DNA of 64,000 bases from an uncultured Chloroflexia bacterium (GTDB lineage Bacteria; Chloroflexota; Limnocylindria; Limnocylindrales; CSP1-4), in contig CAVQJC010000001.1 in the NCBI GenBank assembly GCA_963712745.1, positions 96,001 to 160,000 on the forward strand, in the 5' to 3' direction. A program made the translations under genes and the position numbers. Below the pieces are notes generated by a model. That model was given only the letters and a program-made list of their open reading frames with translations, made no database searches and was not told the origin of the DNA. Of this stretch, positions 5,154 through 42,317 are shown piece after piece (positions within the stretch are counted from its first letter, which is position 1; the number at the start of each line of letters is the position of its first letter).

Positions 5154-5410
5154 CTGCGTCACGCCTCGGTGTGTCGCGCCCGCTGCGGACTCGGCCTGGA
5201 CATGCGCCGTCGGGACAGCCGCGCCGTCGCGCTCGCCTGGTTGGTGCAGGGGCGTGGCGTGGTGAGCGCGCGGGATGTGGCGTACCGTCTGGCCCATCCG
5301 CGCATACGCAGCGCCCGCTGGTGAACGGGAGGAGTTGGCTCCGGCAGTAGGATCCGAACCTGCGACCGATCGGTTGAAGCCGCCCGCTTCGACGGTCTTG
5401 CGAGCGACCG
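5154..5410. mobile_element. Degenerate integrase-tail plus tRNA-Asn 3'-half att-like remnant (copy A)
   Basis: ctgcgtcacgc (LRHA) at 5154; TGGCTCCGGCAGTAGGATCCGAACCTGCGACCGATCGGTTGAAGCCG at 5336 is the reverse complement of a tRNA from anticodon arm to CCA; downstream GACGGTC is shared with copy C. Confidence 0.75.
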
Positions 5411-5751
5411 GTCCGGCTACCTTGGACCCCGATACTTGCGGGGTCGTTCATCGGCGTGCGCGACGACTCATTACTGCTCCTCGGGTACCCCCGGCCGCGC
5501 CTCGAACATTGGCGACCGCAAGCACAGGGGAGGCTGGCGCCCTGGGCGCGTCGATGGTGACGGGTGGCAACACCTAGCGGGCGTCACTGGCCCCCTCGGC
5601 CACTCTCCTCGATACACTCGGACTCCCTGTTTGTGTACCCGCCTGCACCGGACTGGACCGATCGCACCTTGGCGTCCCCAGGCAGGTGGTCGGCCAGCCT
5701 GCCGCCGATGTTCGGGTGGCGCCAATCGAGGGTGCCGCAGAGTCGAGGAGG

Positions 5752-6426
5752 ATGGGCGTTGTGGGGGACCAAGCACGACCTGACGAGCTTCGCGGGAGTC
5801 GACCTGGTGACCACTTGGTGCCCGATCCAACTCGCCACCAGCGCGGCCAGGCATTGGCCGAGTTCACCCTGGTGGTCCCGATCCTGCTGCTGCTTCTGCT
5901 GACCGCCGGAGACTTCGGGCGCTTCTTCGCTGCGGGCATCACCGTCGAGTCGATCACTCGCACCGCGGCCGAGTACGCGGCTCGCGAGTACCTCCGGGAG
6001 GAAGCAGCGGCCGGAGGCGCGCCGCTGAGCGCTGCCGCCTATGCCAGAGTGCATGCCTACGCGTGGGAAACCGTGTGCGAAGAGGCGGCAGGACTGCCGG
6101 GCGTCGCGACTGGTAGCCACGGCGACGAGTGCTCGGGCATACCCACCGTGGTCTGCGTCCACGACCTCTCAGATCCCGACTGCGCCAATGGCTACAACGA
6201 TGCCGGCGGTATCCCGCCAGATTGCGCGAGCCTGCTTCCGACGAACCGCCCCACGAGCACCATCGGCGGCAGCGAAGCAAGTCGCTACGTGGAGGTCCGG
6301 GTCTGCTACCCGTTCTCGACCCTCCTCCCGGTGGACGGCATCACCTCGGTTGGCGGCCCCCTGGCTCCGCTCTCCGGATCTTTCTACATCGAGCGAGAGC
6401 GGGCATTCGTCGTGGTGGACTACTGA
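5752..6426 (+). CDS. TadE-like minor pilin/pseudopilin
   Basis: RGQALAEFTLVVPILLLLL prepilin motif, TRTAAEYAA, YVEVRVCYPF; Cys-rich. Confidence 0.85.
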   Translation: MGVVGDQARPDELRGSRPGDHLVPDPTRHQRGQALAEFTLVVPILLLLLLTAGDFGRFFAAGITVESITRTAAEYAAREYLREEAAAGGAPLSAAAYARVHAYAWETVCEEAAGLPGVATGSHGDECSGIPTVVCVHDLSDPDCANGYNDAGGIPPDCASLLPTNRPTSTIGGSEASRYVEVRVCYPFSTLLPVDGITSVGGPLAPLSGSFYIERERAFVVVDY

Positions 6427-7130
6427 TGCGCAACTCACAGACTGTTGCTCGCGCTCGGTCCCGACGCGGACAGGTGCTCGTTGAATTCGCGCTGGTCATC
6501 CCTATGGCGGCCTTGGTAATCTTCGGGATCATCAGCCTCGGACTGTGGGTCTTCTACCAGCAGCAGGCGACCAACGTCGCGCGCGAGGCCGCCCGCTATG
6601 CGGCAATCCACAGCTCAGAGGCGGTGTGCCCGACGTCCTCGTGGCGAGACCCTCAGGCGCCGCCGCAGTCGTATCGACCGTTCCCCCTGCATTGCGACGG
6701 CCCGGCCAATCCAGCCGACCCATATCCCTGGCCGCGCATGACTGACCACGCCAGGGGCTTCGTCTGGGGCACGGATCCCGAAGAGGTGTTCGTCAACGCT
6801 TGCTGGTCTGGCTACCGCCGCCCCGGCTCGGACCCGTCGGCAAACGCGGACTGGCCAGCGGCCGAGTCTGATGGGGCCGGCGGCGTGCAGTTGAACACGT
6901 ACGAGCCGTGCACGATCGCCGGCCTCGACCCCGCCACGCAGGGCGGGGCACTCGGGTGCGACTACGGTTTGACATCTCCGAGCGACGACAGCGGTAGCGA
7001 CATCCCGGGCAACCAAGTGACGGCCTATGCGTGCTTCGCGTGGTCCCCACCGATGGCCGGGTTCCTCTTGATCCCCGAGAGTGTCGTCATGAAAGCGGTA
7101 GTGACGGAGGTCATACACGATCAGCAATGA
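6426..7130 (+). CDS. TadE-like minor pilin/pseudopilin
   Basis: RGQVLVEFALVIP, NVAREAARYAAIH; start overlaps the upstream stop. Confidence 0.85.
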   Translation: MRNSQTVARARSRRGQVLVEFALVIPMAALVIFGIISLGLWVFYQQQATNVAREAARYAAIHSSEAVCPTSSWRDPQAPPQSYRPFPLHCDGPANPADPYPWPRMTDHARGFVWGTDPEEVFVNACWSGYRRPGSDPSANADWPAAESDGAGGVQLNTYEPCTIAGLDPATQGGALGCDYGLTSPSDDSGSDIPGNQVTAYACFAWSPPMAGFLLIPESVVMKAVVTEVIHDQQ

Positions 7131-8692
7131 ACGCACGACGCCGGCCCCATTCCGATCCACAGCGCGCTCGTGGGCAGACATTGCCGATCTTTGCGCTGGG
7201 GCTGGTCGCTCTCCTCGCCATCACGGCCCTCGTCGTCGACGTCGGCTTCGTCTTCATGATCCGGCGCCACGAGCAGAACGCGACCGATCCCGGGGCACTG
7301 GCTGCGGCCCGCTACATCCCGACTGGCAATCGCTCGCAGATGTGGGCCGGGGCGTGCTCCTATGCCCTTCGGAACGGGTTCCATCCCGCGCGAACCGACA
7401 ACGGTGCGCCCTGTGACCCGACCGGTGTGGTCGATGACTCCACACTGACTGTCAATTGGCCGCCCGGGCAGTCCGCGGGTGAGTACGCCGGGAGCCCTGG
7501 TTACGTCGAGGTCATCGTCACCCGTCCGCACCGAAGCTTCTTCGCTGGGATCATGGGGATGCCAACCTTCACGGTTTCAACAGGCGCTGTGGCCGCGTTC
7601 GACGAAGGGACCGGTGGCTCCAGCTCGCTCGTGTCGCTCTCACCGAAGGGTTGTCCCGGCGAAGCCGCCGCGAAAATCAACGGGGGTGGCGGCGATGGCG
7701 GGATCTACATCTTCCCAGCGGCCGGTGTCACGGACCCGGGCGGCTACATCCAGGTCAACTCGCCGTGTGGCGCTCCGGCCAATTCCGGAGACGACGCGTG
7801 CATCGGGAGCCAAGCTGGCTTCATCCTCAACGGCGGAGCGGAGGTTCATGCACCCGCGTTGTTCGTCCAGGGATCGTGCGGCCAGTCGGGCGCGGCGGGC
7901 ACGGTCGACATCGATACGATCGACGAGGGGGCCTCGTACGTGGGCGACCCACTGTCGCTAGTCAGGCCACCTGACCCAGGTGACCTCGTGACCAGGGAGT
8001 GCCCGGGGGCGCCAGCCGGTCAGTCAGGGACCGCGGGCAACCCTCAAGCCTGCAGGCTCAAAGCAGACGCGACGTTGTCGCCCGGAACGTACTACGGTGG
8101 GTGGGACATCACGAAGCCCGACACGACAATCACGCTCGAGCCCGGAATCTACGTCATGGCCGGCGGGGGAATCAAGCAGAACGGCGGTTCGCTTACGTCG
8201 GCCAGCGGTCGCGTCCTCATCTACAGCACGGACGCGCCGCTGTTCCGAACCAGCTGCCTGGCTGGCGGGGGAAGCCCCGCCCAGTGCCAGGATGACATCA
8301 TCCTCAACGGGAGCGGTGCACTGAGCCTGCGCGGGCTGGACCGCGATTCCCCGTGTCCGCCGTACAGCGGACCCGCCGGTTGCCCGTACGGGGGGATGCT
8401 CGTCTGGCAGGATGGGTCGGGCAGCGGCGCCCACACCGGGAGGGCGGACATCGACATCGGTGGTGGTGCGAGCCTCGACATCGAGGGCACGATCTACTCG
8501 GCCGGGGGTCACGTGGACATGCTCGGCAATGGCGTCGGAACGGGTTGCACGCCCGACACCGACGGGAACACGAACTGCGCGGCAGTCCAAATCATCGCCG
8601 ACACATTCCAGGTGGGTGGGGCTGCAGTCCTCGAGATGCCATACGATCCGGATGACTTCTATCACCTGACGCTGAAAGGCTTGGTGCGCTAG
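7127..8692 (+). CDS. TadG-like pilus-associated protein with a large Gly/Cys-rich beta-rich C-terminal (adhesin-like) region
   Basis: RGQTLPIFALGLVALLAITALVVDVG...EQNATDPGALAAA Tad N-domain; LSPGTYYGG and LEPGIYVM repeats. Confidence 0.8.
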   Translation: MNARRRPHSDPQRARGQTLPIFALGLVALLAITALVVDVGFVFMIRRHEQNATDPGALAAARYIPTGNRSQMWAGACSYALRNGFHPARTDNGAPCDPTGVVDDSTLTVNWPPGQSAGEYAGSPGYVEVIVTRPHRSFFAGIMGMPTFTVSTGAVAAFDEGTGGSSSLVSLSPKGCPGEAAAKINGGGGDGGIYIFPAAGVTDPGGYIQVNSPCGAPANSGDDACIGSQAGFILNGGAEVHAPALFVQGSCGQSGAAGTVDIDTIDEGASYVGDPLSLVRPPDPGDLVTRECPGAPAGQSGTAGNPQACRLKADATLSPGTYYGGWDITKPDTTITLEPGIYVMAGGGIKQNGGSLTSASGRVLIYSTDAPLFRTSCLAGGGSPAQCQDDIILNGSGALSLRGLDRDSPCPPYSGPAGCPYGGMLVWQDGSGSGAHTGRADIDIGGGASLDIEGTIYSAGGHVDMLGNGVGTGCTPDTDGNTNCAAVQIIADTFQVGGAAVLEMPYDPDDFYHLTLKGLVR

Positions 8693-8799
8693 GCACGGAG
8701 CCTGACGAACAAGCTCACACATCGGGCTCCCATGCTATGGCTCCGGGGCGGCGCCGGCAGGTCTTAGGCGCTGAAGAACAAGTCTTCCCGGCCTCGGAG

Positions 8800-9013
8800 G
8801 AGCCCACGAGGCGCTATTGCGGCATGCGCCCCGCAACCAGAGACGAGGCCCGCTCCGCCTAATCACCGCGGCGCAACCGCGCGATGCGGCCGGCCTCCTC
8901 GATCAGGCGCTGTCAGCCGAGATCTCGTCAGTCCCGGGTCCCGAAAACGGGGTCGTTGGGAGTGACACCAAGTCGCCCAAACAAGGAACCACGCGGGGAA
9001 AGTGGCTCCGGCG
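8800..9013. mobile_element. Integrase-tail plus tRNA fragment att-like remnant (copy B), cut by IS481
   Basis: ALLRHA...ITAAQPRDAAGLLDQAL aligns with copy C (ELLRHA...VTAARRREAADLLELA). DNA 8922-9013 is collinear with 31981-32074 and ends TGGCTCCGGCG. Confidence 0.8.
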
Positions 9014-9017
9014 AGAG

Positions 9018-9356
9018 TGTCTGAGTTCGCGACATAGGTGACGACTGATGGGCGACTGGTGAGTCGGGACATGCGTGGCAGTCGGGCGCGTGTCGACGCA
9101 CCGGGTGGCCGTCCTCAGGATCGTCACAACGCAGTCGTCCGTCACCGCCGCCGCAGCCGAGTACGGGCTCAGTCGGGGACACCTGCACCGTCTCTTGCGT
9201 CGGTACCGGGGCGGCGGGCTCGACGCCCTCGAGCCCCGGTCACCATTCGCCTGGCACCTCGAGCGAGAAGGACTCTCGGTCCCAACGACCTCGACCATCC
9301 GGCGCATCCTCCTCGCGGCGGCCCTGGTCGTGCCGGCGCCGCTCGGTCTCGGCTGA
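9018..9356 (+). mobile_element. IS481-family remnant: left end plus internally deleted transposase N-terminus
   Basis: TGTCTGAGTTCGCGACATAGGTGAC terminus; VTAAAAEYGLSRGHLHRLLRRYRGGGLDALEPRS HTH and WHLEREGLSVPTTSTIRRIL; no DDE domain. Confidence 0.8.
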
Positions 9357-10309: not shown

Positions 10310-12988
10310 TCAGGCGTCGACAGAGGCGTCGGGGTCTCCATCCGTTGCCACTGGGGGCGCGGCCACGGGCACGACCGTGACCGTGCTCATGGCCTGACCC
10401 ACGCTGCCATCGTCATCGGTCACGGTGAGCATCAACACGTACGTGCCCGCGGCGCGGTACGTGTGGCTGTCGACCACCGTCCCATCCTCGTGCACGACCG
10501 CCGGGCTGCTGTGGCCGTCGCCCCAGGCGACCTGGGCCTCGTGGGTATCGCGAGGACCTGGGTCGGTGACGGGGACCGGGCCGAGGGCGAGACGCTCGCC
10601 GACGGGGAGCTCGTACGGCCCGAACGGGCCGAGCGAGGGCGCGACGTTGGTGACCTTGACCGTCGTCTTGTCGGTGGCCGTGGCGCCGTCCTCGTCGGTG
10701 ACCGTGAGCTCGATGCTGATGCGGCCGTCGTCGGCGCCGGTGAACCACGGACGCTTCCGGCTGGCGTCGTCGAGCCGGCCCGGCTTCGACCACTCATGGG
10801 CCACGATGCCGCCGTCGGGGTCGTGTGAGCCGCGGCCGTCGAGCCGGACCTTGCTCCCCTCCTCGACCTCGTACGGCCCGCCAGCGTCGGCGACCGGCGG
10901 CTGGTTAGGCTCGAGCGCGAGGGTCGGTTGCTCGACCTTCGGCTCGGGTGTCGGTTGCTCGGCCTCGAGCCCTGACGTGGGCGCGGGCTCCGCGCTCGGC
11001 TGCTCGCCGTCCGGCTCGGGCGCGGGCGTCGGTTGCTCGAGCTCGACCTCGGAGGTCGGTGCAGGCTCGGGCGACTCGGTGACCGCGAGCGGATCGGGTG
11101 CGACCGGCGGCTCGGCAGCGGGGTCGGCGTCCGGCGGCGGGGTCGGCGCCGGTGCCAGTGACGGCAGGGCCTGCGCCGTCAGCGTCCTGACCGTCCGACC
11201 CGTGGTCCTCGCCGGCGGCGCCGAGCGTGGCACGGTCGCCACCGACGCGACATCCACTGCGTGGAGCTGGCCGACCGCATAGTCGAGGCGGACACGCTTG
11301 AGGTCGAAGACCGACTTGCCGGTGCCGCCCAGCCCCTTCCAGACCATGACCGCAGCGCGGACCTTGCCGTTCCTCTGGCGACCTTGACCGGAGGTACCGG
11401 TCTTCCACCACTGCTGCTTGGGGCCGACCTTCTTCGCGACATCGTAGTTGCCGAGGTCCTTCTTGCCCCCGAGCGCCGGGTTCCAGATGGCCACGACGGC
11501 CTTGTGCCTGTTCACCGACCGGCCATAGACCTTGAACTTCATCCCGCCATAGATCGGCTTCTGGACGACCGGGAACGCGTAGATGACCGCGGCGAAGCCC
11601 TTGTTCGAGATCAGCCGGACGCCTCGTGGATACGAGGAACCGGCGAAGCTGATGCGCGCGTTCCTCGACCGGCCCCACAGCGAGATCCGGTTGGCATCCA
11701 GGGTCACGCTCTTCTGCTTCCAGGTCACGTAGTCATGGGAGAGCTTGATGGTCTTCTTGACGACCTTCCGGTTGCCGACGGCATCGCTCAGCGTGACCGC
11801 GACGTCGTAGTCGCCGGACGGCACCAGGCCCCCGCCGTGGGATCGTCCATCCCATTCAGTCCGGTAGTCGCTCGCAGCGGCAGGAAGCGTGGTCTCCTCG
11901 ACGAGATCCCCGCTCGGCATCGCGCGGACGGCGACATGGACTTCGACGGCCTCTGCACGCGTGCCCTCGATCAGGAGCGTGTCCCGGTAGCGGTCCACGA
12001 CGGGGTAGAACTTGGACGGCGTGATGGCGGCCGTCGCGTCAGCCTCACCCAAGCCCTCGACCTCCAACCGGACGTTGCGCTCACCGCGGACGGTGTCGTC
12101 GGGGACCACGAGGGCTGCCTCGATGTTGCCGTTCGTCTCTGGGCGAGCAGACAAGCTCAGGATGCAGCCGTGCCCCGGCGGGAGTGACGCGCCACTACAC
12201 GTGTCCGCCTCGACCGCGAATGAACCGGCGTCAGGGCCCGTGATGGTCGCCGTCCCAAGTTGGATCGGCTCTGTCCCTTCGGATGTGATGGTCACATCCT
12301 GGCGGGCGGTCTCACTGCCCGTATCGGTCTGGCCAAGGTCGAGAACCGGAGGGCTTGTGACAGCGGCCTTGAAGCCGCTCGACGCGTTGTAGCGGACCTC
12401 GCCCCACAGAGGACCCCAGACCTCCTGCGTACCCGCGCAGATCTGTCTGAAGCTGGCGGAGAACGAATCCAAGTCACTGCCGGACCACGAGATCTCGTGA
12501 ATCGTGAACCGACCGATCGGCGCCAGACAGTAGCCGCCAGAGTAGAGGCCAACGTTGATGCCTGGTTGGTCGCCGCTCCGATCAGCGGGATAGACAGCCC
12601 CCGTATACGTCCCGACCGCGAGCTTCTCGCCTATCGGGGCGGCGAAACCAGCCGACCAGGTCTTATCGGGATCGTCAAGACGCCGGACCCCGCTGTAGAC
12701 CGCCTCCATCCACCCGTCGCAGAACGGCGGGGGCGATACTCCCGCCGGTGGGGCGCACGGGCGGCGCCCGTACTCCTCACCGCGTGCCCAGTTCAGCTCG
12801 TCGCCCTGGAGGACGAGTGCTTGGCCGGCCGTGTAGCCGGCCACGTGCCCATCGGTGATGTTGTCGAGATACAGGGCGGTCACGTCGCCGGCAGCCCGGA
12901 CTCCACTGTGGTGCGGCATGCCCACGTAGGCCCCTCCGACCGTGCTGGCGACGAAGACCAAGCCGATCAGGCTCGCAGCCGAACCCAT
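10310..12988 (-). CDS. Large secreted/surface protein with Ig-like domains, a Pro/Glu-rich linker and C-terminal PKD domains
   Basis: N-terminal TM/signal; WDGRSHGGGLVPSGDY (FlgD-Ig-like); EQPTP repeats; NQPPVADAGGPY, WGDG and HTYRAAGTY. Confidence 0.8.
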   Translation of the reverse strand: MGSAASLIGLVFVASTVGGAYVGMPHHSGVRAAGDVTALYLDNITDGHVAGYTAGQALVLQGDELNWARGEEYGRRPCAPPAGVSPPPFCDGWMEAVYSGVRRLDDPDKTWSAGFAAPIGEKLAVGTYTGAVYPADRSGDQPGINVGLYSGGYCLAPIGRFTIHEISWSGSDLDSFSASFRQICAGTQEVWGPLWGEVRYNASSGFKAAVTSPPVLDLGQTDTGSETARQDVTITSEGTEPIQLGTATITGPDAGSFAVEADTCSGASLPPGHGCILSLSARPETNGNIEAALVVPDDTVRGERNVRLEVEGLGEADATAAITPSKFYPVVDRYRDTLLIEGTRAEAVEVHVAVRAMPSGDLVEETTLPAAASDYRTEWDGRSHGGGLVPSGDYDVAVTLSDAVGNRKVVKKTIKLSHDYVTWKQKSVTLDANRISLWGRSRNARISFAGSSYPRGVRLISNKGFAAVIYAFPVVQKPIYGGMKFKVYGRSVNRHKAVVAIWNPALGGKKDLGNYDVAKKVGPKQQWWKTGTSGQGRQRNGKVRAAVMVWKGLGGTGKSVFDLKRVRLDYAVGQLHAVDVASVATVPRSAPPARTTGRTVRTLTAQALPSLAPAPTPPPDADPAAEPPVAPDPLAVTESPEPAPTSEVELEQPTPAPEPDGEQPSAEPAPTSGLEAEQPTPEPKVEQPTLALEPNQPPVADAGGPYEVEEGSKVRLDGRGSHDPDGGIVAHEWSKPGRLDDASRKRPWFTGADDGRISIELTVTDEDGATATDKTTVKVTNVAPSLGPFGPYELPVGERLALGPVPVTDPGPRDTHEAQVAWGDGHSSPAVVHEDGTVVDSHTYRAAGTYVLMLTVTDDDGSVGQAMSTVTVVPVAAPPVATDGDPDASVDA

Positions 12989-29555: not shown

Positions 29556-29556
29556 T

Positions 29557-30305: not shown

Positions 30306-30324
30306 CCACGGTCACTGCCTCACC

Positions 30325-34475: not shown

Positions 34476-35971
34476 GCCGCGTCCTCGATCGGCAGCGCTG
34501 CCGCCATGATCGCCTCCTGCGTGGCGTGGGCGCGGTCGAACTCCCGCGACACTCGACCCTCGCGCATGACGACGACGCGGTCGGCAAGGCCGAGGATCTC
34601 GGGCAGCTCGGACGAGACCAGGACCACGGCCTTCCCATCGGTCGCAAGCTCGGCGACCAGGTCATAGATCTCAGCTTTCGCCCCGACGTCGATCCCGCGG
34701 GTGGGTTCGTCGAGCAGGACGACGTCCGAGCCCGCCGCCAGCGCGCGTGCGATGACGACCTTCTGCTGGTTCCCGCCAGACAGCGTCCCGACGGTGACTG
34801 AGGGGCCTGTGACCTTGATCCGTAGCAGCTCGATGTAACGCACTGCGATCTCACGCATCACGCCGAACAGGAGGAAGCCGCGGCGCACGCACGCCCCGAG
34901 CGATGCGAGTGTGATGTTCTGCTGGACGCTCATCGGAAGCACCAGCCCCTGACCGTGGCGGTCCTCGGGTACGAGCCCGATCCGGACCGCGAGCGCGTCA
35001 CGAGGCGTGCTGATCTTGACCGCCTGCCCCCGCACAAGGATGCGTCCGCTGGACCTCGCGTCGAGGCCGATGACCGCCCTGAGCGTCTCAGTGCGGCCCG
35101 CCCCCACGAGACCAGCGATGCCGAGCACCTCGCCGGCCCGGACGGCAAACGTGACGTCGTGCACGGTCCCTGGCACGCTGAGGCCTTCCACCCGGAGCAA
35201 CTCATCGCCCGGCCGCGCTTCGCGCGTGGGAAATGTCTCGGCGAGCTGCCGGCCGACCATCAAGCGGATGAGTTCTCTCTGGTTGGTGGCACCACGGTCG
35301 AGCGTGGCAATCACCTTGCCGTCACGCATCACGGTCACGCGATCAGCGATCCGCTCGATCTCCTCCAGCCGGTGCGAGATGTAGACCACACCGACGCCCT
35401 CAGCCGTTAGACGGGCGATCCTAGTGAACAGCTCCTCGGTCTCGTGGGCGGAGAGTGACGAGGTAGGCTCGTCCATGATGAGCGCGCGCGACTTCCATGC
35501 CAGGGCCCGGACGATCTCGATGCCCTGGCGTTTCGCGATGCTAAGCCGTCGCACAGGCTCATCGGGGTCGACGTCCAGGTCCAACAGGTGGAGGAGCTCT
35601 CGCGTCTGGGTCCGCATGGTGCCGCTGTCGAGCAACCTTGCCCGACCGTGCACCACTTCTCGTCCCAGGAAGATGTTCTGGGCGACCGTCATGTCGGGAG
35701 CGAGGGCGAGCTCCTGGTAGACGGTACTGATCCCGGCGTGTCTGGCAGCGCTCGGGCTGTGGACCCGCACCGGCTTGCCGTCGATCCTGATCTCGCCATC
35801 GTCCGGCCGGTACGCGCCGGAGAGGATCTTGACGAGCGTCGACTTGCCCGCCCCGTTCTCGCCCAGGAGAACGTGCACCTCCGACGCGCGTAGATCGAAG
35901 TCGACGTCGTCCAGGGCGAGGACGCCAGGGAATCGCTTCGAGACGTGCTCCACGACAAGGAACGGGTCCAC
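34472..35971 (-). CDS. Sugar ABC transporter ATP-binding protein (RbsA-like, two domains)
   Basis: GENGAGKST, MDEPT, LSGGNQQKV, LDEPTRGIDVGAK; GTG start next to the upstream stop. Confidence 0.93.
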   Translation of the reverse strand: MDPFLVVEHVSKRFPGVLALDDVDFDLRASEVHVLLGENGAGKSTLVKILSGAYRPDDGEIRIDGKPVRVHSPSAARHAGISTVYQELALAPDMTVAQNIFLGREVVHGRARLLDSGTMRTQTRELLHLLDLDVDPDEPVRRLSIAKRQGIEIVRALAWKSRALIMDEPTSSLSAHETEELFTRIARLTAEGVGVVYISHRLEEIERIADRVTVMRDGKVIATLDRGATNQRELIRLMVGRQLAETFPTREARPGDELLRVEGLSVPGTVHDVTFAVRAGEVLGIAGLVGAGRTETLRAVIGLDARSSGRILVRGQAVKISTPRDALAVRIGLVPEDRHGQGLVLPMSVQQNITLASLGACVRRGFLLFGVMREIAVRYIELLRIKVTGPSVTVGTLSGGNQQKVVIARALAAGSDVVLLDEPTRGIDVGAKAEIYDLVAELATDGKAVVLVSSELPEILGLADRVVVMREGRVSREFDRAHATQEAIMAAALPIEDAA

Positions 35972-35972
35972 G

Positions 35973-37208
35973 TCAGGCCGCGGCCTCGAGGATCGAGACG
36001 ACCTGAGTGGCCGACTCGATACGGATCGGACTTCCCGCCACCACGAGATCCTGCAGGACGCCTTCAGCGATCTCCTCGAACTGCCCGCTGCCGACGCCGA
36101 CCTGCGACAGTCGAGTCGGCTGGCCGAGCTCAGCCACGAGCGACTCGACGGCGCGGGCGGCAGCCTCGGCCGCAGCCGCGTCACTCATCGCAGACGTGTC
36201 GACTCCCAAGGCCTCGGCGATCAGCCGCTGGCGATCCGCGGTCGCGGTGGCCAGGAAGCGCATCACCTGGGGCAGGATGATGCACGACGTCACCCCGTGC
36301 GGGACCCCGCCTTTCGGCCCCAGCTGGTGCCCGATGGCGTGCGAAAGGCCGAGGCTGAGATTCATCTCGCCGAAGTACGACAGCCATGCCCCCATGTAGC
36401 CGGCGGCACGGGCGCGAATGTCGGACGGATCGCGCCGTGCCGCGGGGAGGGCTGACGAGAGGCGCCGGATCGCCTCGAGGCTAAGCACATCGGTGACCGG
36501 CTGGTGTCGCGGCGAATACACGGTCTCGATGGCGTGATCCAGTGACCGCATTCCCGTCGAGACCCAGAGGTCGACCGGCGTCGTAAGTCCGACCTCGGGG
36601 TCGTGGAAGACGACGTGGGGCGTGAGCTCGTTGGCGATGAGCAGATCCTTGACACGCCGAGTGAGACTCGTGACGGCGCCGGCATTGGCGAACTCGGCGG
36701 CCGCGAGCGTGGTCGGGATCGTCACATGCGGCAGGGAACGTCCGTGGGTCGCGGGAAGTGTTGTGCCTGCCACCGGGTCATACCGGGCACGGAACGCTTC
36801 GAGTGCCTCGACAGTGTCGGCGCCCTCCCCGACCGCAAGGGCCACCGCTCGCGACAGGTCGATCGCGCTGCCTCCGCCGAGGCTGACGAGGAGGTCGGCA
36901 TCGGCGGCCCGCACCGCCGCAACCGCATCCATGACGGCCGGGTATGGAACGTGGGCCTGGACGCCGTCAAACATCCCGACGAAGCGGTCACCGAGCAACT
37001 CGCGTATGCGAGTCGTGACCGCTCCCCCCGACAGCTCTGGCACCGTGATGAGGAACACTCGTGTGCCGCCGATCCGCTCGCACTCGGCGGGAAGCTGCTC
37101 GAGGCAACCTCGGCCGAACCGGACAACGTCCATCGGCAGGTACCAGAACTCACCCAGATCCGGTTCGTGGAGCCCCATCACCGCATCGTCAGCGCGCCGC
37201 CCACTCAT
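35973..37208 (-). CDS. Iron-containing alcohol dehydrogenase family (maleylacetate-reductase-like)
   Basis: LGGGSAID, IPTTL, DHAIE, HAIGHQLG...VPHG. Confidence 0.88.
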   Translation of the reverse strand: MSGRRADDAVMGLHEPDLGEFWYLPMDVVRFGRGCLEQLPAECERIGGTRVFLITVPELSGGAVTTRIRELLGDRFVGMFDGVQAHVPYPAVMDAVAAVRAADADLLVSLGGGSAIDLSRAVALAVGEGADTVEALEAFRARYDPVAGTTLPATHGRSLPHVTIPTTLAAAEFANAGAVTSLTRRVKDLLIANELTPHVVFHDPEVGLTTPVDLWVSTGMRSLDHAIETVYSPRHQPVTDVLSLEAIRRLSSALPAARRDPSDIRARAAGYMGAWLSYFGEMNLSLGLSHAIGHQLGPKGGVPHGVTSCIILPQVMRFLATATADRQRLIAEALGVDTSAMSDAAAAEAAARAVESLVAELGQPTRLSQVGVGSGQFEEIAEGVLQDLVVAGSPIRIESATQVVSILEAAA

Positions 37209-38656
37209 CCTGGCCTTCCCTTCAGCACCACGAGGTGCTCTTCGGTCATCTCCTCGATCGCGTATCGGGGTCCCTCTTTGCCGCCGGATCCCGAAGCCTT
37301 CACGCCGCCGTATGGCATCCGGTCGACCCGGTAGCGCGAGGTGTCGTTGACGATCACACCACCGAACTCGAGGCGTCGTGATGCCTCGAGGGCAACGTCG
37401 AGGCTGGCGGTGAAGATGGCCGCCTGCAACCCGTAGTCGGTGGAGTTCGCAAACTCGATCGCTTGGTCGAGATCATGGTAGGAGAAGATGCTGACGACGG
37501 GCGCGAAGACCTCCTGGCACACCACGGGCAATGAAGGCTCCGGGTCCGCGAGCACTACCGGCCAGAGGAGCGCGCCCTCACGACGAAGCTCAGTGAGCGC
37601 TCGGGACCCGGTCTCGATGGCCGCGCGGACGGCTGTCTCCGCGTCGATGGCCTTCTGCTCGTTGAGCATAGGACCGAGATCCGACGCGTCATCGAGTGGA
37701 TCGCCGACCTTCAGCGACTCGACCAGTGGGATGAACGCCTGCTCGAAGCGCTCTCGCACGGCCTCGTGGACGAGGATCCGCTGGACCGAGATGCAGACCT
37801 GACCGGCGTATCCGAATGAACCGGCGAGGGCGCCGCGGGCCGCCGCCTCGATGTCCGCGTCTTCATGCACGATGACAGGAGCATTGCCGCCCAGTTCCAG
37901 GGTCGCGTGTCGTAGACCAAGCAGCGAACGGATGCGCATGCCGACCGCAGTGCTGCCTGTGAACGAGACCATGCCGACCCGCGAATCACTGACGAGCGCA
38001 TCACCGACCTCGTCGCCGCGGCCGATGACCACCTGCAGACGATCCGGGGGTAGTCCCGCCTCCAGCAGGTCGCTCGCGAACTCCAGCGCCGACAGCGGCG
38101 TCGCGGTGGCTGGCTTGAGGACGACCACATTGCCGGCTGCGATCGCAGAACCGACCTTGTGTGCCGGCGAGAGCAACGGCCCGTTGAACGGCGTGATGGC
38201 GGCCACGACGCCGATGGGCACCCTGATGGTGAACGCGATGCGGTCCTCGGAGCCTTCAACGGCGTCGACAGGCACGAGATGGCCTGTGATGCGTCGGGCC
38301 TCTTCCGCAGCCTCCTCGAGAACGAGGGCCGACCGCGCGACCTCGCCCCGGGCTTCACGCATCGGCTTGCCCGATTCGAGCGCCACCAGGCGCGCGAGCT
38401 CGTCCGCTCTCCCGCGGATGCGCACGGCCGTAGCTCGCAGGATCGTGGATCGCTGCGTCGGCGTAAGGGCTCCGTTGCGAGATGCCTTGGCGGCGCTTTC
38501 GACGGCCTCCGCCACCTCTGTCACCGTCGCGAGCGGGACGCGTCCGAGCGGGCGTCCGTCGTACGGCGCATGGATCACTTCCTCACCACCCGCAGCGCTG
38601 GAGCGCCAGGTTCCATCGATCAGCAAGCCACGGGTATCCCGCATGTCGTCGGTCAT
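37205..38656 (-). CDS. NAD(P)-dependent aldehyde dehydrogenase
   Basis: ITPFN, FTGST, LELGGN, GQVCIS, EVFAP, PYGGVKASG. Confidence 0.93.
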   Translation of the reverse strand: MTDDMRDTRGLLIDGTWRSSAAGGEEVIHAPYDGRPLGRVPLATVTEVAEAVESAAKASRNGALTPTQRSTILRATAVRIRGRADELARLVALESGKPMREARGEVARSALVLEEAAEEARRITGHLVPVDAVEGSEDRIAFTIRVPIGVVAAITPFNGPLLSPAHKVGSAIAAGNVVVLKPATATPLSALEFASDLLEAGLPPDRLQVVIGRGDEVGDALVSDSRVGMVSFTGSTAVGMRIRSLLGLRHATLELGGNAPVIVHEDADIEAAARGALAGSFGYAGQVCISVQRILVHEAVRERFEQAFIPLVESLKVGDPLDDASDLGPMLNEQKAIDAETAVRAAIETGSRALTELRREGALLWPVVLADPEPSLPVVCQEVFAPVVSIFSYHDLDQAIEFANSTDYGLQAAIFTASLDVALEASRRLEFGGVIVNDTSRYRVDRMPYGGVKASGSGGKEGPRYAIEEMTEEHLVVLKGRPG

Positions 38657-39858
38657 GTCTGTGCCACCTCATCATCATCGGCGAGCAGGTGCTCCGCGAG
38701 AGCCACCATGGCACTCACGCCGACATCGATCGACGTCTCGTCCACGTCGAAGCGACCATCATGCAGCGAGGGCCAGTCCGTCGCGCCGGGCGATGCCACC
38801 CCAAGCTTCAGGTAGAGGCCCGGCATGCGCTCGGCGAACAGGGCGAAGTCGTCGGTCGTCATGGGCGGACCGTCCAACTCGCGCAACCCGCCGGGTTCGA
38901 GCACACCGGGCAGCAACTGGCGTGCGAGTGCAACGAGGCGCGGGTCGTTGATGACAGGCGGCATCTCGTTGGCCCACTCGACCTCGGCCGTCGCACCGAC
39001 CATCTCGGCCGCGGCAGTCGCCACCCGCTCGACCGAAGCGCGGATACGTTGGCGGATCGCGGGGTCGACGCTTCGGATGGTCCCCGTGACTTCGGCCTGC
39101 GCCGGAACGATGCTCTGGGTCGCGCCGCCATGGATCGTCCCGACATTCAGAGCGAAGCGGTCCCCCGGATCCACTTCTCGGGCGGCGAGGTGGTGGAGGC
39201 CGACGACGAGATGACTGATCGCCAGGATGGCGTCCCTACCGCTGCTCGGGGTGGCCGCGTGCGCAGCGGACCCCTCGACCCGGATCTGGAAGGCATCCTT
39301 GGCCGCCATGGCTACGTGCTCATCAAGGCCGATGGCACCCGCGGGCAGGCCGGGCCAGCAGTGCAGCCCCAGGATCGCGTCCACGTGTTCGCCCAGAGCG
39401 CCGGCTTCGATCATGACCCGAGCCCCGCTCATCTCCCCGAACGGGATCTCCTCAGCGGGCTGCAGCAGGACGGTCAGCTGGCCACGGAGCTCATCTCTGG
39501 CCGCCAAGCGCTCGGCTGCCCCGACCGCGACTGCCATGTGGACGTCGTGACCGCACGCGTGCGCCACACCGGGGACAGTCGAGGCGTAGTCGGTCGAGAG
39601 GAGATCGCTCGTGGGCACAGCGTCCATGTCGGCCCGCAGTACGACGTGTGGCCTACCCTCGACGCCCCCGATGCTCGCGGTCAGGCCCGTTCCGCCGATA
39701 CCGCTCTTGATTCGGAATCCCGAGGCGGACAGGCGCTCAGCGAGAAGCCGAGCCGTGCCGTGCTCCTGGAAGCGCAGCTCGGGCATGCGACGGAGCTCTC
39801 GTCGAAGCGCCACAGTCGACAGGGGGACGGCGCGGTCCGTAACCGTCATGATGTCCAA
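38653..39858 (-). CDS. M20D amidohydrolase
   Basis: LRADMDA, HACGHD, QPAEE, HAATP, TTDDFA, LHDGRF. Confidence 0.92.
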   Translation of the reverse strand: MDIMTVTDRAVPLSTVALRRELRRMPELRFQEHGTARLLAERLSASGFRIKSGIGGTGLTASIGGVEGRPHVVLRADMDAVPTSDLLSTDYASTVPGVAHACGHDVHMAVAVGAAERLAARDELRGQLTVLLQPAEEIPFGEMSGARVMIEAGALGEHVDAILGLHCWPGLPAGAIGLDEHVAMAAKDAFQIRVEGSAAHAATPSSGRDAILAISHLVVGLHHLAAREVDPGDRFALNVGTIHGGATQSIVPAQAEVTGTIRSVDPAIRQRIRASVERVATAAAEMVGATAEVEWANEMPPVINDPRLVALARQLLPGVLEPGGLRELDGPPMTTDDFALFAERMPGLYLKLGVASPGATDWPSLHDGRFDVDETSIDVGVSAMVALAEHLLADDDEVAQT

Positions 39859-39908
39859 AATACGACCGAAATGGGCTCGCCGAGGCTAGACCGGCCGGCC
39901 GGCCGCTG

Positions 39909-41253
39909 TCAAGGCGTTGTGCTCGACCTGCTATCCACGGCTCGTGGCAGCAGGCGATCCAAGTCGACGCGATAGACGGACTGCGGCCGTCCCGCTCGTG
40001 GTGCGGACCGGGTACCGACAGCCATGGCGATACCCGAGCGCTCGAGTGACGCGAGCATCCGGAGCGCTGACCGGGGCGCGACGCCATAGGCGGAGGCGAG
40101 GTCCCGTGCCGTGACGGCGGACGGGTCGAGCGTGGCGAGCGCGGTGATGAGACGAGCCAGCGTGAACGGCCCCATGCCGACGGCCTTCGCATGGGCGAGT
40201 AGTCGAGGGTCCGTCTCACGCAATCGGGTTCCTGCGAGCGCGTCGCGGTCGCCGAGTCGAAGCATCGCCCCATCGTCCAGGACCACCTGCTTCCCGCCAG
40301 ACCGTCGACCGATGGCGGCGGATCGGCGCGCGTTCGCCTCCGCTCGGGCGACCGTCGCCCCCACGCCATAGCCGATCAGCAGCCCATCCCTCCCCTCGTG
40401 GACATCCTCGTCTCGGGCGTCGGACCCGGCGAGCTCCGCGGTGACCACACCCCGAGTCGTGTGGATGAGGAAGCTGCCGTCGCTCGCTCGGCTCAGCGTG
40501 CCTTGGAGCCGCTCCGCAAGGTCGACCACCTGCTGTCGGCGCCGCAACTCGTCACGCTGCGCCTGATAGGGGCCCGACCTGGCATCCTGGCGCTTCTGCT
40601 CACGAGGCTCGACCAGCGCCACGGCGATCTGGCTGGCTTCCGTACGGGCCAGGCGATCTGTCAGTGACGCGCGTCGCAGGGCCTCGCGCAGCGCCGCGTG
40701 TGTGTGCTCGATACGGGCCACCGGAACACCGAGTTGCCGAAGCTCGTTTCGAACCGATCCCATGCAGGTAAGGCACAGCTCGACCTCGCCACGCCGGTAG
40801 TGTTCCTCATGGAAGGCGGTCACATCCATCGACCGCCACTGGCCGAGCGCGAAGCTCACGGTCGTCGAAGGACAGAAGAGCGGCAGGTGGCTCCAGGTCG
40901 AGATCGTGGTAGATCTCGTCAACCGCGAATCGCTCGATCGTGTCGATGCTGATGACCGGTAGCCGACCCCGATGTTCGCGCAGGACGCCTACCAGCGCAC
41001 GGTACAGGTCTGCGCCTTCGTGAGGGATGAAATCAAGGGTCGCTCGCAATCCCAGAGTCTCCCGGGCGATCGTGTATGGCACACGACCCGTGAAAAGCAG
41101 GACCGTGCAAGCCGCGTCCAGTTCGATCGCCAGCTCAGGAGCAGCGTCCCAGGTCACGTAGGTGCGCGCGAGCACGGTTTCGGCGAGTCCGAGCTCGGCT
41201 GCCACGTTCCTGGCTCTGGCGACGGAATCCTCCGGCCCGATGATGCCGATCAC
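39909..41253 (-). CDS. Putative transcriptional regulator with C-terminal HTH, frameshift near 40880
   Basis: IGIIGPEDSV...LFTGRVPY...ISIDT (ORF 40807) continues into FHEEHYRRG...IGYGVG.T...AEANA...TARDLASAYGVAPRSALRML...GRPQSVY (ORF 39909). Confidence 0.7.
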
Positions 41254-41324
41254 AGGACGATTATGACCGAAATCACATTCGTAGCCGCTGCTCATGCCCG
41301 TCGGCGTGACCAGCGAAGAGACGA

Positions 41325-41372
41325 TGGCTCCGGCCGTAGGATCCGAACCTGCGACCGATCGGCTGCAGCCGA
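41325..41372 (-). mobile_element. tRNA-Asn-like 3' half, att-like (copy D)
   Basis: TGGCTCCGGCCGTAGGATCCGAACCTGCGACCGATCGGCTGCAGCCG differs from copy A at only 3 of 47 positions. Confidence 0.8.
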
Positions 41373-41484
41373 CGGGCTGCGCGGCGGCGGCGGCGATGAC
41401 GACGGGCTCGATGTCGTCGAGGCCGATGAGGCCAAGCCCTGCGAGCAGGCGCGGCTTCGAACGCCGCGTGAGAGAAGTCGACAT
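41373..41484 (-). pseudogene. 5' stub of a gene, possibly a MoxR-like AAA ATPase, cut at copy D
   Basis: RBS GGGAG, then MSTSLTRRSKPRLLAGLGLIGLDDIEPVVIAAAAAQ running into the tRNA fragment; the resemblance to pre-Walker-A MoxR N-termini is from memory. Confidence 0.35.
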
Positions 41485-41783
41485 GACACGTACTCCCATC
41501 CGGCCTGGGAGTCGCACCGTAAGCCCGGCGTGTCACCGAGCCCGGTTGCGGTGCCTTCGTCGGGCCAGGCCCCTCCGGCGCTCTCGATGCGTGTCGCCAA
41601 ACGGTTGGACAGCGCAAGCGTCGGATCAGTACGGTCGTGCCACCTGGGCGGCACGACCTCGGAGAGAGGACTGACTGGTGACAGGTCGCGCCGAAGTGCC
41701 GACCACGAGGTCGGCACTCCAGAGTGAGTGGCCCTTTGAACCTGGCGATGCTCCAGGGGCGAGGCTCGGCGTCCAGGCTGCTC

Positions 41784-42065
41784 CTACGCCTGGAGCGATC
41801 GCAGGCCGTCCTCTAGCGGATGCTGCTCGGTCTGAGGTGAGGTTGCCGTCGAACGAAGCTTGATCCAGACGGTAGCGGCGGTCAGGCTGGCCACCAGCAC
41901 GGCGATACCCATGGCCAGGCCGGCGCGGAGGGTCCCGCTCGCGTCGATGAGGAGGGCGGAGGCATCGATGAGCGCGATCACGGCCAACGACGTCGCGACC
42001 ATGACCACGTACCAGAGCGCCACCACGAAGTACATCTTGGCGATCTTCCTTAGGGTGTGCTTCAC
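41784..42065 (-). CDS. Small two-TM membrane protein
   Basis: RBS GAGGAG; two hydrophobic helices. Confidence 0.6.
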   Translation of the reverse strand: MKHTLRKIAKMYFVVALWYVVMVATSLAVIALIDASALLIDASGTLRAGLAMGIAVLVASLTAATVWIKLRSTATSPQTEQHPLEDGLRSLQA

Positions 42066-42199
42066 GTCGTACTCCTCGTCAGCTGTCGTCTGGTTTGGTG
42101 TCGAAGGCCCTGGGGCAGTCGTCCCCCGACCGGATGACTAACGTACCAGCCGACCAGCGCACCCAAACCCACCGCACCGACGAATCTTCGGCATCCCGC

Positions 42200-42317
42200 C
42201 GGCGGATCACCCGGGGTCCTCCGGGGTTGCCCAGAGGCGCCTGACGAGAGCACCCCCCGAGGAACAGGGTTGGTCTGGCGGACGGGCTCCGAACCGACGA
42301 CTTATGCGCTAGCAGCC
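42200..42317. mobile_element. Degenerate att-like remnant (copy E)
   Basis: CGGGGTTGCCCAGAG (42222-42236) is identical to 32007-32021; followed by TGGTCTGGCGGACGGGCTCCGAACCGACGACTTATGCGCTAGCAGCC (42271-42317), collinear with the tRNA half. Confidence 0.7.

Follow-up and report, generated by a model that had tools for sequence, protein, structure and literature searches.

Probable serial integration of islands at a single tRNA-Asn(GTT) gene, with later integrase decay, in an uncultured high-GC lineage

The window, a stretch of 64,000 nucleotides of contig C1, carries five copies (A to E) of one module on its minus strand, with blocks of cargo genes between them. A full module comprises three parts: a tRNA 3' half that has been displaced, a non-coding arm of ~110 nt containing paired 11-mers (the P' arm, or spacer), and the convergent 3' end of a tyrosine-integrase gene. 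The most distal block (1-5327) starts outside the window at C1:95,044, its far border being taken from homologues in the related genome G024, and encodes an Ala_racemase_N-like protein, a sugar-binding protein and small membrane proteins (Pfam). It is followed by copy A (5328-5376, minus strand), the 3' part of tRNA-Asn (positions ~36-75), and by block A-B (5377-8762), which encodes TadE-like and Tad/TadG-like pilus proteins (PF07811, PF13400). In module B, a decayed integrase 3' remnant on the plus strand (8763-8987, translation ...LLRHAPRNQRRGPLRLITAAQPRDAAGLLDQAL) overlaps the P' arm and the last 11-15 nt of the tRNA on the minus strand (8894-9037; nhmmer E=1e-16, profile positions 14-171). 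The tRNA part is cut by a truncated IS481-family element (9014-9356, plus strand) consisting of the left inverted repeat and the HTH part of the transposase (Pfam HTH_28/HTH_29/HTH_23).

Block B-C (9357-31815, 23 kb) was assigned by Pfam a PKD-domain surface protein, an IS110 transposase, an AT3+SGNH acyltransferase, dihydroxyacetone kinase/PTS genes, a class I aldolase and a ClC channel. In module C, an integrase pseudogene remnant (31816-32112, plus strand; residues ~319-421 in the frame of the integrase of the relative G007, by tblastn and translation) faces tRNA-Asn positions 28-75 (32064-32111) and the ~110-nt P' arm, which together occupy 31953-32111 of the minus strand (BLAST, nhmmer). 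A candidate P-arm motif that may bind integrase, CTGACTGAC (32163-32171, minus strand), lies 60 nt 5' of this tRNA fragment. Block C-D (32112-41313) contains genes for a ribose-type sugar ABC transporter, an aldehyde dehydrogenase, an M20 peptidase and two proteins of no known family (Pfam). Copy D (41314-41368, minus strand) is again a tRNA-Asn 3' part (positions ~38-75); a co-directional ORF starts 33 nt downstream of it. Block D-E (41369-42211, 0.95 kb) holds the gene for a 93-aa membrane protein and a SAM riboswitch aptamer (41493-41593, minus strand; Rfam RF00162, 47.8 bits vs a gathering score of 44.4). Module E (42212-42317, minus strand; profile positions 2-105) combines a diverged tRNA 3' part (42271-42317) with a partial P' arm. 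Block E-K (42318-64000, Pfam) encodes a TetR regulator, a hydrolase, an MR/MLE enzyme, a glycyl-radical enzyme and a branched-chain-type ABC transporter, and runs on to module K (C1:160,046-160,209, nhmmer E=1e-24) just beyond the window.

The tRNA parts were compared by BLAST with the bin's own tRNAs. tRNA-Asn(GTT) was the top match for copies A (40 nt, 90%, E=1.3e-9), C (48 nt, 89.6%, E=5e-12) and D (38 nt, 89.5%, E=2e-8); for copy B only 11 nt were matched (E=0.07), and copy E gave no match in this search. An nhmmer profile built only from modules of relatives scored all five copies (A 2e-8, B 1e-16, C 3e-31, D 6e-8, E 8e-8). Copy E has the tRNA part and spacer without an integrase remnant. 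Copies A and D consist of the tRNA part alone and are 93.6% alike over 47 nt, with three derived substitutions in common; lacking the P' arm, they may come from another type of element or may have lost the arm. An exact 15-mer is common to C (32007-32021) and E (42222-42236), and in 0/100 shuffles were two matches found. Modules C and K are 89% alike over 195 nt, and module B is 79% alike over 317 nt to module J (beyond the window) plus its IS. Overall the modules are 80-93% alike over 90-200 nt, the best pair reaching 93% over 107 nt, with no long exact repeat. A preliminary description made from the letters alone had placed five minus-strand copies at these positions, called the tRNA parts of A, C, D and E Asn-type, noted that B keeps just 11 nt and pointed out the 15-mer. 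The copies were borne out, BLAST naming tRNA-Asn(GTT) for A, C and D and the profile scoring all five.

The P' arm contains paired repeats 85-110 nt 3' of the tRNA end, that is, two tandem repeats of 11-12 nt. The candidate P-arm motif is the same motif as these repeats, and G008 has its own variant on both sides. It was found at -58 to -64 in 5/16 fragments examined (~0.03 expected from background density) and is kept in two of the eight fragments of this bin (G000). This placement suggests that the motifs may be arm sites bound by the integrase. The element at B and the IS between module J and the intact tRNA share one insertion point in the tRNA sequence. Their IS481-family assignment is based on Pfam rve (4e-14), HTH_32 (1e-13) and a weak LZ_Tnp_IS481 match (0.014), together with ~26-nt inverted ends, a 15-nt duplication of the tRNA 3' end and a split reading frame.

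The integrase remnants were identified by comparison with G007, in which an uninterrupted 425-aa integrase ORF (PF00589, E=2e-15) is convergent on its tRNA-Asn, in the same place as the remnants here. The G007 element also carries DUF3631 and type III restriction enzyme genes. A second MAG has an integrase 73% identical to that of G007 and likewise convergent on tRNA-Asn. In tblastn with the G007 integrase, modules C (E=6e-25), F (4e-12), K (2e-5) and B (0.005) matched its C-terminus. The C remnant aligns at 59% over residues 320-421 (61% in a second alignment), with one in-frame TAG at 31894-31896 and His at the position of the catalytic Tyr; the B remnant aligns at 41% over 85 aa (residues 316-399). 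The earlier reading of B and C as the C-terminus of a tyrosine integrase thus holds. The LRHA codons that it reported upstream of A, B and C are present in all three, but the stretch at A gave no integrase tblastn match at E<=10 and no Pfam match at E<=1. The location of attP inside the integrase gene, as in the SSV1 and Mx8 types, was considered and rejected: in the 73%-identical homologue the frame ends 89 nt short of the tRNA, and the 3-periodicity of spacer variability is weak (0.74, 0.57, 0.68). The G007 frame is open through the spacer into the antisense tRNA.

As had been stated, the window contains no intact tRNA gene and no full integrase, and none of the four PF00589 matches in the bin lies on C1. 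In the bin (84.55% complete), no integrase of the G007 family, excisionase (HTH_17) or DUF3631 gene was found. The retained codons of the catalytic domain number about 45 in B, 41 in C, 14 in F, 6 in K and 0 in G, J and E, so the uniform retention of the last ~60 integrase codons claimed at first is not upheld. The tRNA-adjacent integrase of ten relatives is intact in one, in pieces in one, deleted for residues ~130-370 in one, reduced to tails in six and missing from one. Among 48 congeners it is intact in one (1/49 genomes searched), broken in four (G017, G004, G008, G010) and represented by spacer and tail only in 15. The relatives therefore form a full decay series, from intact through frameshifted and internally deleted genes to tails of many lengths.

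Only one asparagine tRNA gene, tRNA-Asn(GTT) at C1 c[218348,218422], is among the 47 tRNAs found in the bin. It lies on the minus strand, 58 kb beyond the right edge of the window, and the array, with the window inside it, extends downstream of it over C1:95,044-218,347 (123 kb, as contiguous in the metagenome assembly). An intact minus-strand tRNA-Asn with a convergent integrase had been predicted to the right of the window. The tRNA is present as predicted, but no convergent integrase is: what accompanies the tRNA gene at the head of the array is an IS481-family element together with a gene for a corrinoid protein. The profile gave 12 matches at E<=0.05 in 4.2 Mb. Eleven are on the minus strand of C1 between 101,328 and 218,395, namely A-E in the window and K, F, G, I, J and the tRNA itself beyond it; the twelfth is a real tRNA-Leu gene on C4. 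Hence all partial tRNA-Asn copies at this threshold are on the strand of the tRNA and at most 117 kb downstream of it, and the proposed tie of the copies to the tRNA-Asn locus stands, none being scattered elsewhere. The arrays of relatives are smaller and equally co-oriented, with 20/20 profile matches (E<=0.01) on the tRNA strand and 1-5 per genome in the stretches fetched. If the copies were a SINE- or MITE-like repeat dispersed from a tRNA, with no connection to integration, the tRNA similarity itself would be accounted for and nothing more. With all 11 copies on one strand of one 117-kb interval at the parent tRNA, adjoining integrase remnants and synteny breaks, this origin is practically negligible.

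In G024, which has no island, sequence colinear with C1:95,021->53,086 begins no more than ~150 nt after tRNA-Asn, and the same flank is preceded by ~31 kb of other DNA in G010 and by ~34 kb in G022. The comparison argues that the whole 123-kb region is an insertion. A tRNA scar was sought at the distal array end, and no tRNA fragment was found adjoining the flank there. No conjugation or replication family was detected by Pfam in array and flanks (58 proteins scanned, part of all genes). The array does not differ in GC or GC3 from the remainder of its contig (0.675 vs 0.679; p=0.76 by Mann-Whitney test), so there is no compositional mark of foreign origin.

It is very improbable that the array is an assembly artefact in which island variants of co-existing strains were chained via their shared repeat. 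Contamination of the bin is 5.03%, and colinearity of contig C2 with C1:337-514 kb, at an identity of 74-80%, indicates either a second, related genome or an old duplication; both points would suit such chaining. Even in the best pair, however, the modules differ too much for an assembler to confuse them, and arrays of the same design occur in independently assembled relatives. Contigs of one public run also bridge modules C and E, a weak argument as the run may be the source sample.

The window is most probably (roughly 0.8) the distal half of a tandem island array, formed by serial integration into tRNA-Asn with later decay of the integrases. Serial integration of islands at tRNA sites is a well-known route of bacterial genome growth. 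One element family would target the single tRNA-Asn(GTT) in its 3' part (positions ~26/28-75), every element having a tyrosine integrase gene convergent on the att site. Each newcomer would rebuild the tRNA with its own 3'-half copy and push away the earlier 3' half and all behind it, so that a module would be the junction of two neighbours. A junction would begin with the newer element's P arm, if this survives, followed by the tRNA 3' half that was pushed away and then by the older element's ~110-nt P' arm and integrase gene 3' end. Positions, orientation, homology, synteny breaks and the decay series are observed; the crossover region, the order of arrival and the function of the arm sites are putative parts of this scheme. 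Module C, with candidate P-arm motif, core and P' arm, agrees with the attP-like junctions expected in the preliminary description, and the copies are well explained, as it held, as att scars of integrative elements targeting tRNA-Asn. Stop codons, inserted IS elements and deletions of differing extent would then have ruined the integrase genes. Given the varied tails, the full decay series and the lack of an integrase at the tRNA, the graveyard of decayed islands that the same description named as its alternative fits most of the data. The array here looks immobile, with catalytic-domain remnants of 0-45 codons only.

Block sharing between species breaks at modules, in agreement with the earlier expectation that differences in gene content would break at the copies. 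The match of G021 starts at G (95.2%), that of G014 just past the integrase tail of K (94.2% over 4.3 kb, block E-K), and those of G005 at J and at I (87-92%). Several of them fall precisely where the att core begins, at tRNA position ~28 or at the motif CGGCTGCTAGCCG. Blocks are 91-97% identical between species, whereas the core flanks are 65-85% identical: the HipBA block is 97.3% identical to G022, 95.2% to G021 and 92.1% to G009, and the I and H blocks are 92% and 91% identical to G005. The same junction of a truncated spacer to HipA is found in G000, G021 and a metagenome contig, which indicates that the integrase was lost before the HipBA block spread. The Fic block lies before HipBA in G009 and after HipBA in G022, and a remnant of it lies after HipBA in G000. 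The permuted order of G009 and G022 is not obtainable by strict proximal addition alone and so speaks against the preferred scheme, as do the different modules in front of the K-block cargo in G000 and G014. In G009, an integrase-less 3.07-kb segment (DUF2293, Fic) has the intact tRNA on one side and a perfect 50-nt repeat on the other.

The similarity of these integrase-less blocks, far higher than that of the core flanks, the common HipA junction, the order conflict and the G009 segment could also be produced by living non-autonomous cassettes, cis-mobilizable and integron-like, which keep att and arms and are moved by a rare integrase in trans or by accretion with a neighbour; tail plus att would then be a selected minimal end. 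Lineage-matched P-arm and P'-arm motifs have been kept, and intact or near-intact helper integrases are present in the genus. We regard this reading as possible but well short of even odds. Remnant lengths form a continuum, the arm repeats are gone from several modules, and the P-arm motif is missing from most fragments of this bin, in which no integrase was found. The G009 cassette stops on either side at a distance of 62-70 nt from the tRNA part, short of the paired repeats. No credible excision or circle joint, and no deletion junction, was found at a module in the short assembled contigs of four public runs. The order conflict derives from one of two informative genome pairs, and homologous recombination between strains, with the tRNA or modules as anchors, could together with deletions give the same patterns.

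Exchange of blocks mainly by homologous recombination, as in a flexible genomic island, with modules as old scars and short homology patches, is in turn unlikely. The composition of the array is that of the genome, as expected among close kin; cargo of the K block stands behind different modules in G000 and G014; the modules offer the similarity described above, and the integrase is missing from almost all genomes. The core flanks, however, are too diverged to be other than a poor substrate, several breaks coincide with the start of the att core, and the perfect repeat of G009 is a classic product of site-specific integration.

Among known systems, integrons share with this locus a one-sided array of promoter-distal cargo units with recombination sites between them and the possibility of reshuffling. 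Unlike integrons, the array has no IntI-type integrase beside it; its units are multi-gene, in both orientations and 1-23 kb long, and in place of attI and attC its sites appear to derive from tRNA and attP arms. With no PF00589 on C1 and the array head described above, an integron was rejected. The CIMEs of ICESt1/ICESt3 in Streptococcus thermophilus are att-flanked blocks without integrase or transfer genes, in tandem with related elements at one site, and this accretion is the established form of the trans-mobilisation that had been suggested for the window. The blocks here likewise have modules on both sides, in a bin where integrase, HTH_17 excisionase and DUF3631 homologues were not found. 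The ICESt1/ICESt3 target is not a tRNA gene, and mobilisation there was reportedly demonstrated experimentally, whereas for the present blocks it is hinted at indirectly, by block identity above that of the core, the order conflict, the perfect 50-nt repeat and the retained arm motifs.

The locus is best read as matching the ssrA islands of Dehalococcoides and the tycheposon islands. The former are described as tandem downstream of one small-RNA gene and bounded by the gene or by direct repeats of its 3' end; the repeats are 20 bp, all within ~100 kb and variable in number per strain, and 15 islands without an integration module were proposed to be cis-mobilizable (McMurdie et al. 2011, PMC3146451). 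Tandem islands behind one small-RNA gene, 3'-end direct repeats and integrase-less blocks are common to both, and the relatives here bear the same phylum label, Chloroflexota, in their records. In contrast to that account, tRNA-Asn is targeted here, a repeat of 48-50 nt is joined to a conserved arm of ~110 nt, and the cargo is general metabolism, pili and toxin-antitoxin instead of reductive dehalogenases. Prochlorococcus tycheposons are described as elements that stack at one tRNA with partial tRNA copies between them, newcomers pushing older elements inward and leaving fragmented integrases and extra partial tRNAs (10.1101/2020.12.28.424599). Stacking at one tRNA, partial tRNA copies and integrase fragments are all seen here, and displacement of older elements belongs to the preferred scheme. 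Differences from that description are host genomes of 2-4 Mb at 68% GC, a far longer array, with 11 scars over 123 kb, and the DUF3631 and type III restriction enzyme genes of the G007 element.

One tRNA gene in an uncultured high-GC lineage has thus gathered genes for metabolism, pili, surface proteins and toxin-antitoxin systems, in all more than 120 kb or about 3% of the bin. The identity of the blocks, set against that of the surrounding core, suggests that this locus is a main channel of gene flow in the genus. More doubtful is the proposal that it is a tRNA-anchored cassette platform, where a rare integrase in trans would act on attP-like junctions (P-arm motif, 48-nt core, paired P'-arm repeats), so that multi-gene cassettes without an integrase could be cut out, rearranged and passed from species to species, giving arrays of >120 kb; if true, this would be a functional convergence with integrons, built from tRNA and phage-type att parts. 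For annotation, odd pseudo-tRNA and pseudo-integrase fragments find an explanation, and such fragments mark island borders. The att-site anatomy of one integrase family, with core tRNA positions ~28-75, paired repeats 85-110 nt downstream and a motif ~60 nt upstream, may offer an integration tool in organisms without genetics.

A repeat finder returned three 54-nt direct copies in the window, at 5329, 32057 and 41318, and no tRNA gene was found there. The bin as a whole (G000; a metagenome bin of 4.2 Mb in 20 contigs, 68% GC, 84.55% complete and 5.03% contaminated) has 47 tRNA genes, with a single tRNA-Asn(GTT). This gene is intact and lies on C1, the contig of the window, at c[218348,218422] on the minus strand, 58 kb right of the window, on the side and strand predicted in the preliminary description. 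Copies A, C and D were ~90% identical to its 3' part over 38-48 nt (BLAST, E=1e-9 to 5e-12). BLAST of the whole bin gave eight partial tRNA-Asn copies at E<=0.2, all on the minus strand of C1 between 101,336 and 217,015. A DNA profile was also built from nine modules of relatives, with no G000 sequence included; a module consists of a displaced tRNA-Asn 3' part, a ~110-nt spacer (the P' arm) and the 3' end of a convergent tyrosine-integrase gene. The profile matched the bin 12 times at E<=0.05, 11 times on the C1 minus strand and once within a tRNA-Leu gene on contig C4. The E-values were 2e-38 (G), 8e-38 (J), 3e-31 (C), 1e-24 (K), 3e-24 (F), 1e-16 (B), 1e-14 (intact tRNA), 2e-8 (A), 6e-8 (D), 8e-8 (E) and 0.02 (I), where A to E lie in the window and the other copies between it and the tRNA. 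The copies described from the window are real, including B and E, which are scored by the relatives' profile although they had no BLAST support; the exact 15-mer common to C and E was confirmed. A further candidate, H (C1:195,927-195,950), is weak, with 24 nt matched by BLAST at E=0.05 and no score from the profile. Another weak, possible tRNA-like scar is located at C1:178,523-178,555 (L001:18523-18555), minus strand, covering profile positions 1-33 (E=1.9). Island-block homology with the congener G010 (72-77%) starts at this scar, from C1:178,265 downward. Block F-G may be two blocks.

The sequence adjoining the tRNA part was common to B, C, F, G, J and K and partly to E, while A and D were alike in the tRNA part alone (93.6% identity across 47 nt, three derived changes being shared). 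In congener G007 a 425-aa frame without interruption converges on the tRNA-Asn; it matched PF00589 (E=2e-15), and the domain extends to about residue 356. As shown by tblastn against the bin, this protein matched C at residues 320-421 (59%, E=6e-25), F at 347-419 (49%, E=4e-12), G at 378-421 (55%, E=3e-6), K at 355-424 (41%, E=2e-5), B at 316-399 (41%, E=0.005) and J at 376-401 (62%, E=0.12). No tblastn match to A, D or E was obtained at E<=10. The tails of A, B, C, F and K alone gave no Pfam family at E<=1; they are too short for Pfam, so their assignment to an integrase rests on tblastn to the Pfam-positive G007 protein. Residues past ~360 of the G007 frame are translated spacer and antisense tRNA. 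The catalytic-domain remnant is therefore longest in B (~45 codons) and C (~41), shorter in F (~14) and K (~6), and missing from G, J and E. Copy C contains an in-frame TAG at 31894-31896 and a His at the catalytic tyrosine position.

Integrases of tRNA genes fall into sublocation classes, and attP lies inside int in the cases of Mx8 and SSV1. A frame running through the att site was rejected as a family trait, because a 73%-identical integrase in another MAG, convergent on tRNA-Asn, ends 89 nt short of the tRNA and spacer variability follows codon positions with only weak periodicity. The spacer is apparently non-coding. RNAalifold gave no support for a conserved structure of its RNA either (-10.7 kcal/mol, covariation term +0.39), and the single stable hairpin was invariant.

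Two tandem 11-12-nt repeats of the GTGACTGACTG type were found in the spacer, 85-110 nt from the tRNA end, in 7 of 11 aligned sequences. The G007 spacer has its own variant twice and that of congener G008 a different variant twice. Of 16 fragments examined, five also had a GTGACTGACTG-type motif 58-64 nt away on their opposite side, where background density predicts ~0.03 such cases, and the G008 variant stands on that side of both G008 fragments. Near most G000 fragments no such opposite-side (P-arm) motif was found, as it was present at two of eight. The repeats and the opposite-side motif are candidate arm-type integrase-binding sites. Copy C is one of the fragments with the opposite-side motif (window 32163-32171), and the proposal that module C is an attP-like junction holds in this form, with the motifs as putative binding sites.

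An IS481-family element of 1.33 kb lies between J and the intact tRNA (C1:217,016-218,347; L003:17016-18347). It matched Pfam rve (4e-14) and HTH_32 (1e-13) in a split reading frame and has inverted ends of ~26 nt. It was inserted after tRNA position 60, and 15 nt of the tRNA 3' end are duplicated at its borders, which is why the tRNA-Asn is whole despite the insertion. The 11 nt reported for copy B are the same 15-nt piece with two mismatches, and a truncated element of this type comes directly after it (window 9014-9356); B and J with their elements were 79% identical over 317 nt. In congener G014 (L023/L024) this arrangement occurs twice with identical flanks. It is possible that the element is site-specific and targets the tRNA or the att core.

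Comparison with relatives defined the extent of the array. In congener G024, DNA colinear with C1 from 95,021 down to 53,086 begins no more than ~150 nt past the tRNA-Asn, and the same flank is reached after ~31 kb of other DNA in G010 and ~34 kb in G022. The 123 kb of C1:95,044-218,347 are therefore an insertion array, made up of the IS and blocks of 6.3, 3.7, 23.1, 9.3, 0.9, 21.9, 8.3, 21.2, 6.3, 2.6 and 18.5 kb; a scar was sought at its distal end and not found. Block sharing between congeners ends at modules, and differences in block content break at the copies as the preliminary description had expected: in G021 at G, in G014 at K and in G005 at J and I. The G021 tRNA, spacer and HipBA block correspond to G000 beginning at G (95.2% over 2.0 kb), and the match of G014 runs from C1:159,994 downward, just past module K (94.2% over 4.3 kb). 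Identity to G005 was 87% from J, 92% from I and 91% across H. Where the HipBA block ends, G000 and G022 diverge within a core-like CGGCTGCTAGCCG motif. Relatives had one to five modules in the 6-40 kb fetched, with 20 of 20 profile matches at E<=0.01 on the tRNA strand; the F module as query gave seven matches in G000 and zero to three in each of 24 congeners searched. Blocks common to G000 and congeners were 91-97% identical, whereas the core flanks of G000 were 65-85% identical to those of G021, G022, G009, G014 and G005, which indicates that shared blocks crossed species after species divergence. No compositional sign of foreign origin was seen, GC and GC3 of the array being equal to those of the rest of the contig.

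Among ten relatives compared at the locus next to the tRNA, only G007 had an intact integrase. The gene was in pieces in G008, where it neighbours an HTH_17 excisionase-type gene, and reduced to residues 3-129 fused to 371-425 in G010. It was present as tails from residues 352-396 in G001, G005, G009, G014, G021 and G022, and absent in G024. A separate search of 48 congeners gave one uninterrupted frame, four broken ones (G017 with one TGA, G004 frameshifted, G008 and G010) and 15 genomes with the spacer alone, with or without a tail; the remaining matches were other kinds of integrase (26-40% identity). Truncation points form a continuum, similarity stopping ~28, 35, 62, 70, 107-115, 176 and 245 nt from the tRNA end. 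No integrase homologue, excisionase or DUF3631 protein was found in the bin; the integrase may be unbinned. The G007 element (L029:2827-9642), the one intact member of the family, encodes a DUF3631 protein besides the integrase, and also a helicase-like protein of 1030 aa that was judged by eye to be a type III restriction subunit. Its contig stops before the far border; it looks like a defence-carrying mobilizable island. A second integrase tail in the bin, limited to PF00589 positions 122-171 (E=8e-9), was found on contig C17 (376,381-376,530, minus strand), at 2 kb from tRNA-Lys(TTT) (C17:374,074-374,149), and may mark another decayed tRNA-linked island.

In the simplest account of the array, elements of one family integrated serially at the tRNA and each integrase then eroded, as is shown by the orientation, location and homology of the modules, the empty site in G024 and the decay series. 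GTC at the anticodon of fragments C, F and G, against GTT in the tRNA, fits a crossover on the 3' side of the anticodon, in which the incoming element would supply the 5' part of each scar. Deletions would begin within the integrase gene and extend into the next block, which would explain the varying tail lengths and the presence of K cargo behind different modules in G000 and G014. The preliminary description was right in reading an array of islands, and its minimal cis end was not demonstrated.

Alternatively, integrase-less blocks may have been mobilised in trans or by accretion, an explanation that we consider possible but rather doubtful. It is favoured by the Fic block, which stands before HipBA in G009 and after it in G022, with a Fic 3' remnant after HipBA in G000; by an integrase-less 3.07-kb DUF2293-Fic segment in G009 (L025:619-3735) between the intact tRNA-Asn and a perfect 50-nt repeat; and by a truncated-spacer-to-HipA junction common to G000, G021 and one metagenome contig (95-96% identity). 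The decay model does not cover these three observations, and homologous exchange between strains fits them too; block order was permuted in one of two informative genome pairs, which is too few. The G009 segment contains a decayed tRNA-like scar directly past the Fic gene, and a 94.7% identical Fic protein occurs at a different array position in G022. A metagenome scan with HipA returned two loci, one a 1.8-kb contig with the G000 junction and nothing further. Parts of window 32001-42000 occurred in 21 public runs. Four runs compared with window 26001-46000 gave short assembled contigs at low depth and 15 listed joints, none at C, D or E; the shorter side of the joints was 20-32 letters at 90% likeness, and we draw no inference from joints or uncovered parts. 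Contig C2 (234 kb) is colinear with C1:337,000-514,600 at 74-80% identity, with one 3.5-kb stretch at 94.6% and the same tRNA order, which suggests that two related genomes are partly represented in the bin, or that a large duplication took place long ago.

Cargo was assigned by Pfam for 58 array and flank proteins, with genes called by a GC3-based caller. It includes TadE/Tad pilus proteins, a PKD surface protein, an AT3-SGNH acyltransferase, HipA, an IS110 transposase, dihydroxyacetone kinase and PTS genes, class I and class II aldolases, an aldehyde dehydrogenase, several sugar and amino-acid ABC transporters, a ClC channel, an M20 peptidase, MR/MLE enzymes, a glycyl-radical enzyme, and URO-D and corrinoid methyltransferase genes. 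In block B-C the IS110-family transposase (window 13258-14217, plus strand; DEDD_Tnp_IS110 E=6e-17) lies beside the PKD gene, which has imperfect 33-72-nt repeats at 10908-11068, and an intergenic perfect 22-nt tandem repeat (GGCGACCAGACGTCGTACGCGT) occupies 17287-17360 with at least three overlapping 30-nt copies at 100%. A SAM riboswitch aptamer (window 41493-41593, minus strand; RF00162, 47.8 bits against a gathering score of 44.4) is located at the very end of the ~0.95-kb D-E block, with scar D (41314-41368) ~120 nt downstream and, 33 nt past the scar, an ORF without a Pfam family (40810-41295). The island border may have separated this riboswitch from its original gene; alternatively, its transcript may now run on into a foreign one.

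Literature searches aimed elsewhere met no description of the tRNA-Asn array of this lineage, and no absence is claimed. PMC3146451 describes tandem islands in Dehalococcoides that lie no more than 100 kb from ssrA and have its 20-bp repeat at their borders; 15 of them have no integration module and were proposed to be cis-mobilizable. The design of the tRNA-Asn array matches theirs. The concept of accretion is attributed there to Pavlovic et al. 2004. The design also matches that of tycheposon islands, for which sections of a preprint (10.1101/2020.12.28.424599) report partial tRNAs between stacked elements and fragmented integrases as remnants. The tRNA-Asn locus is a large, well-preserved new example of a known process.
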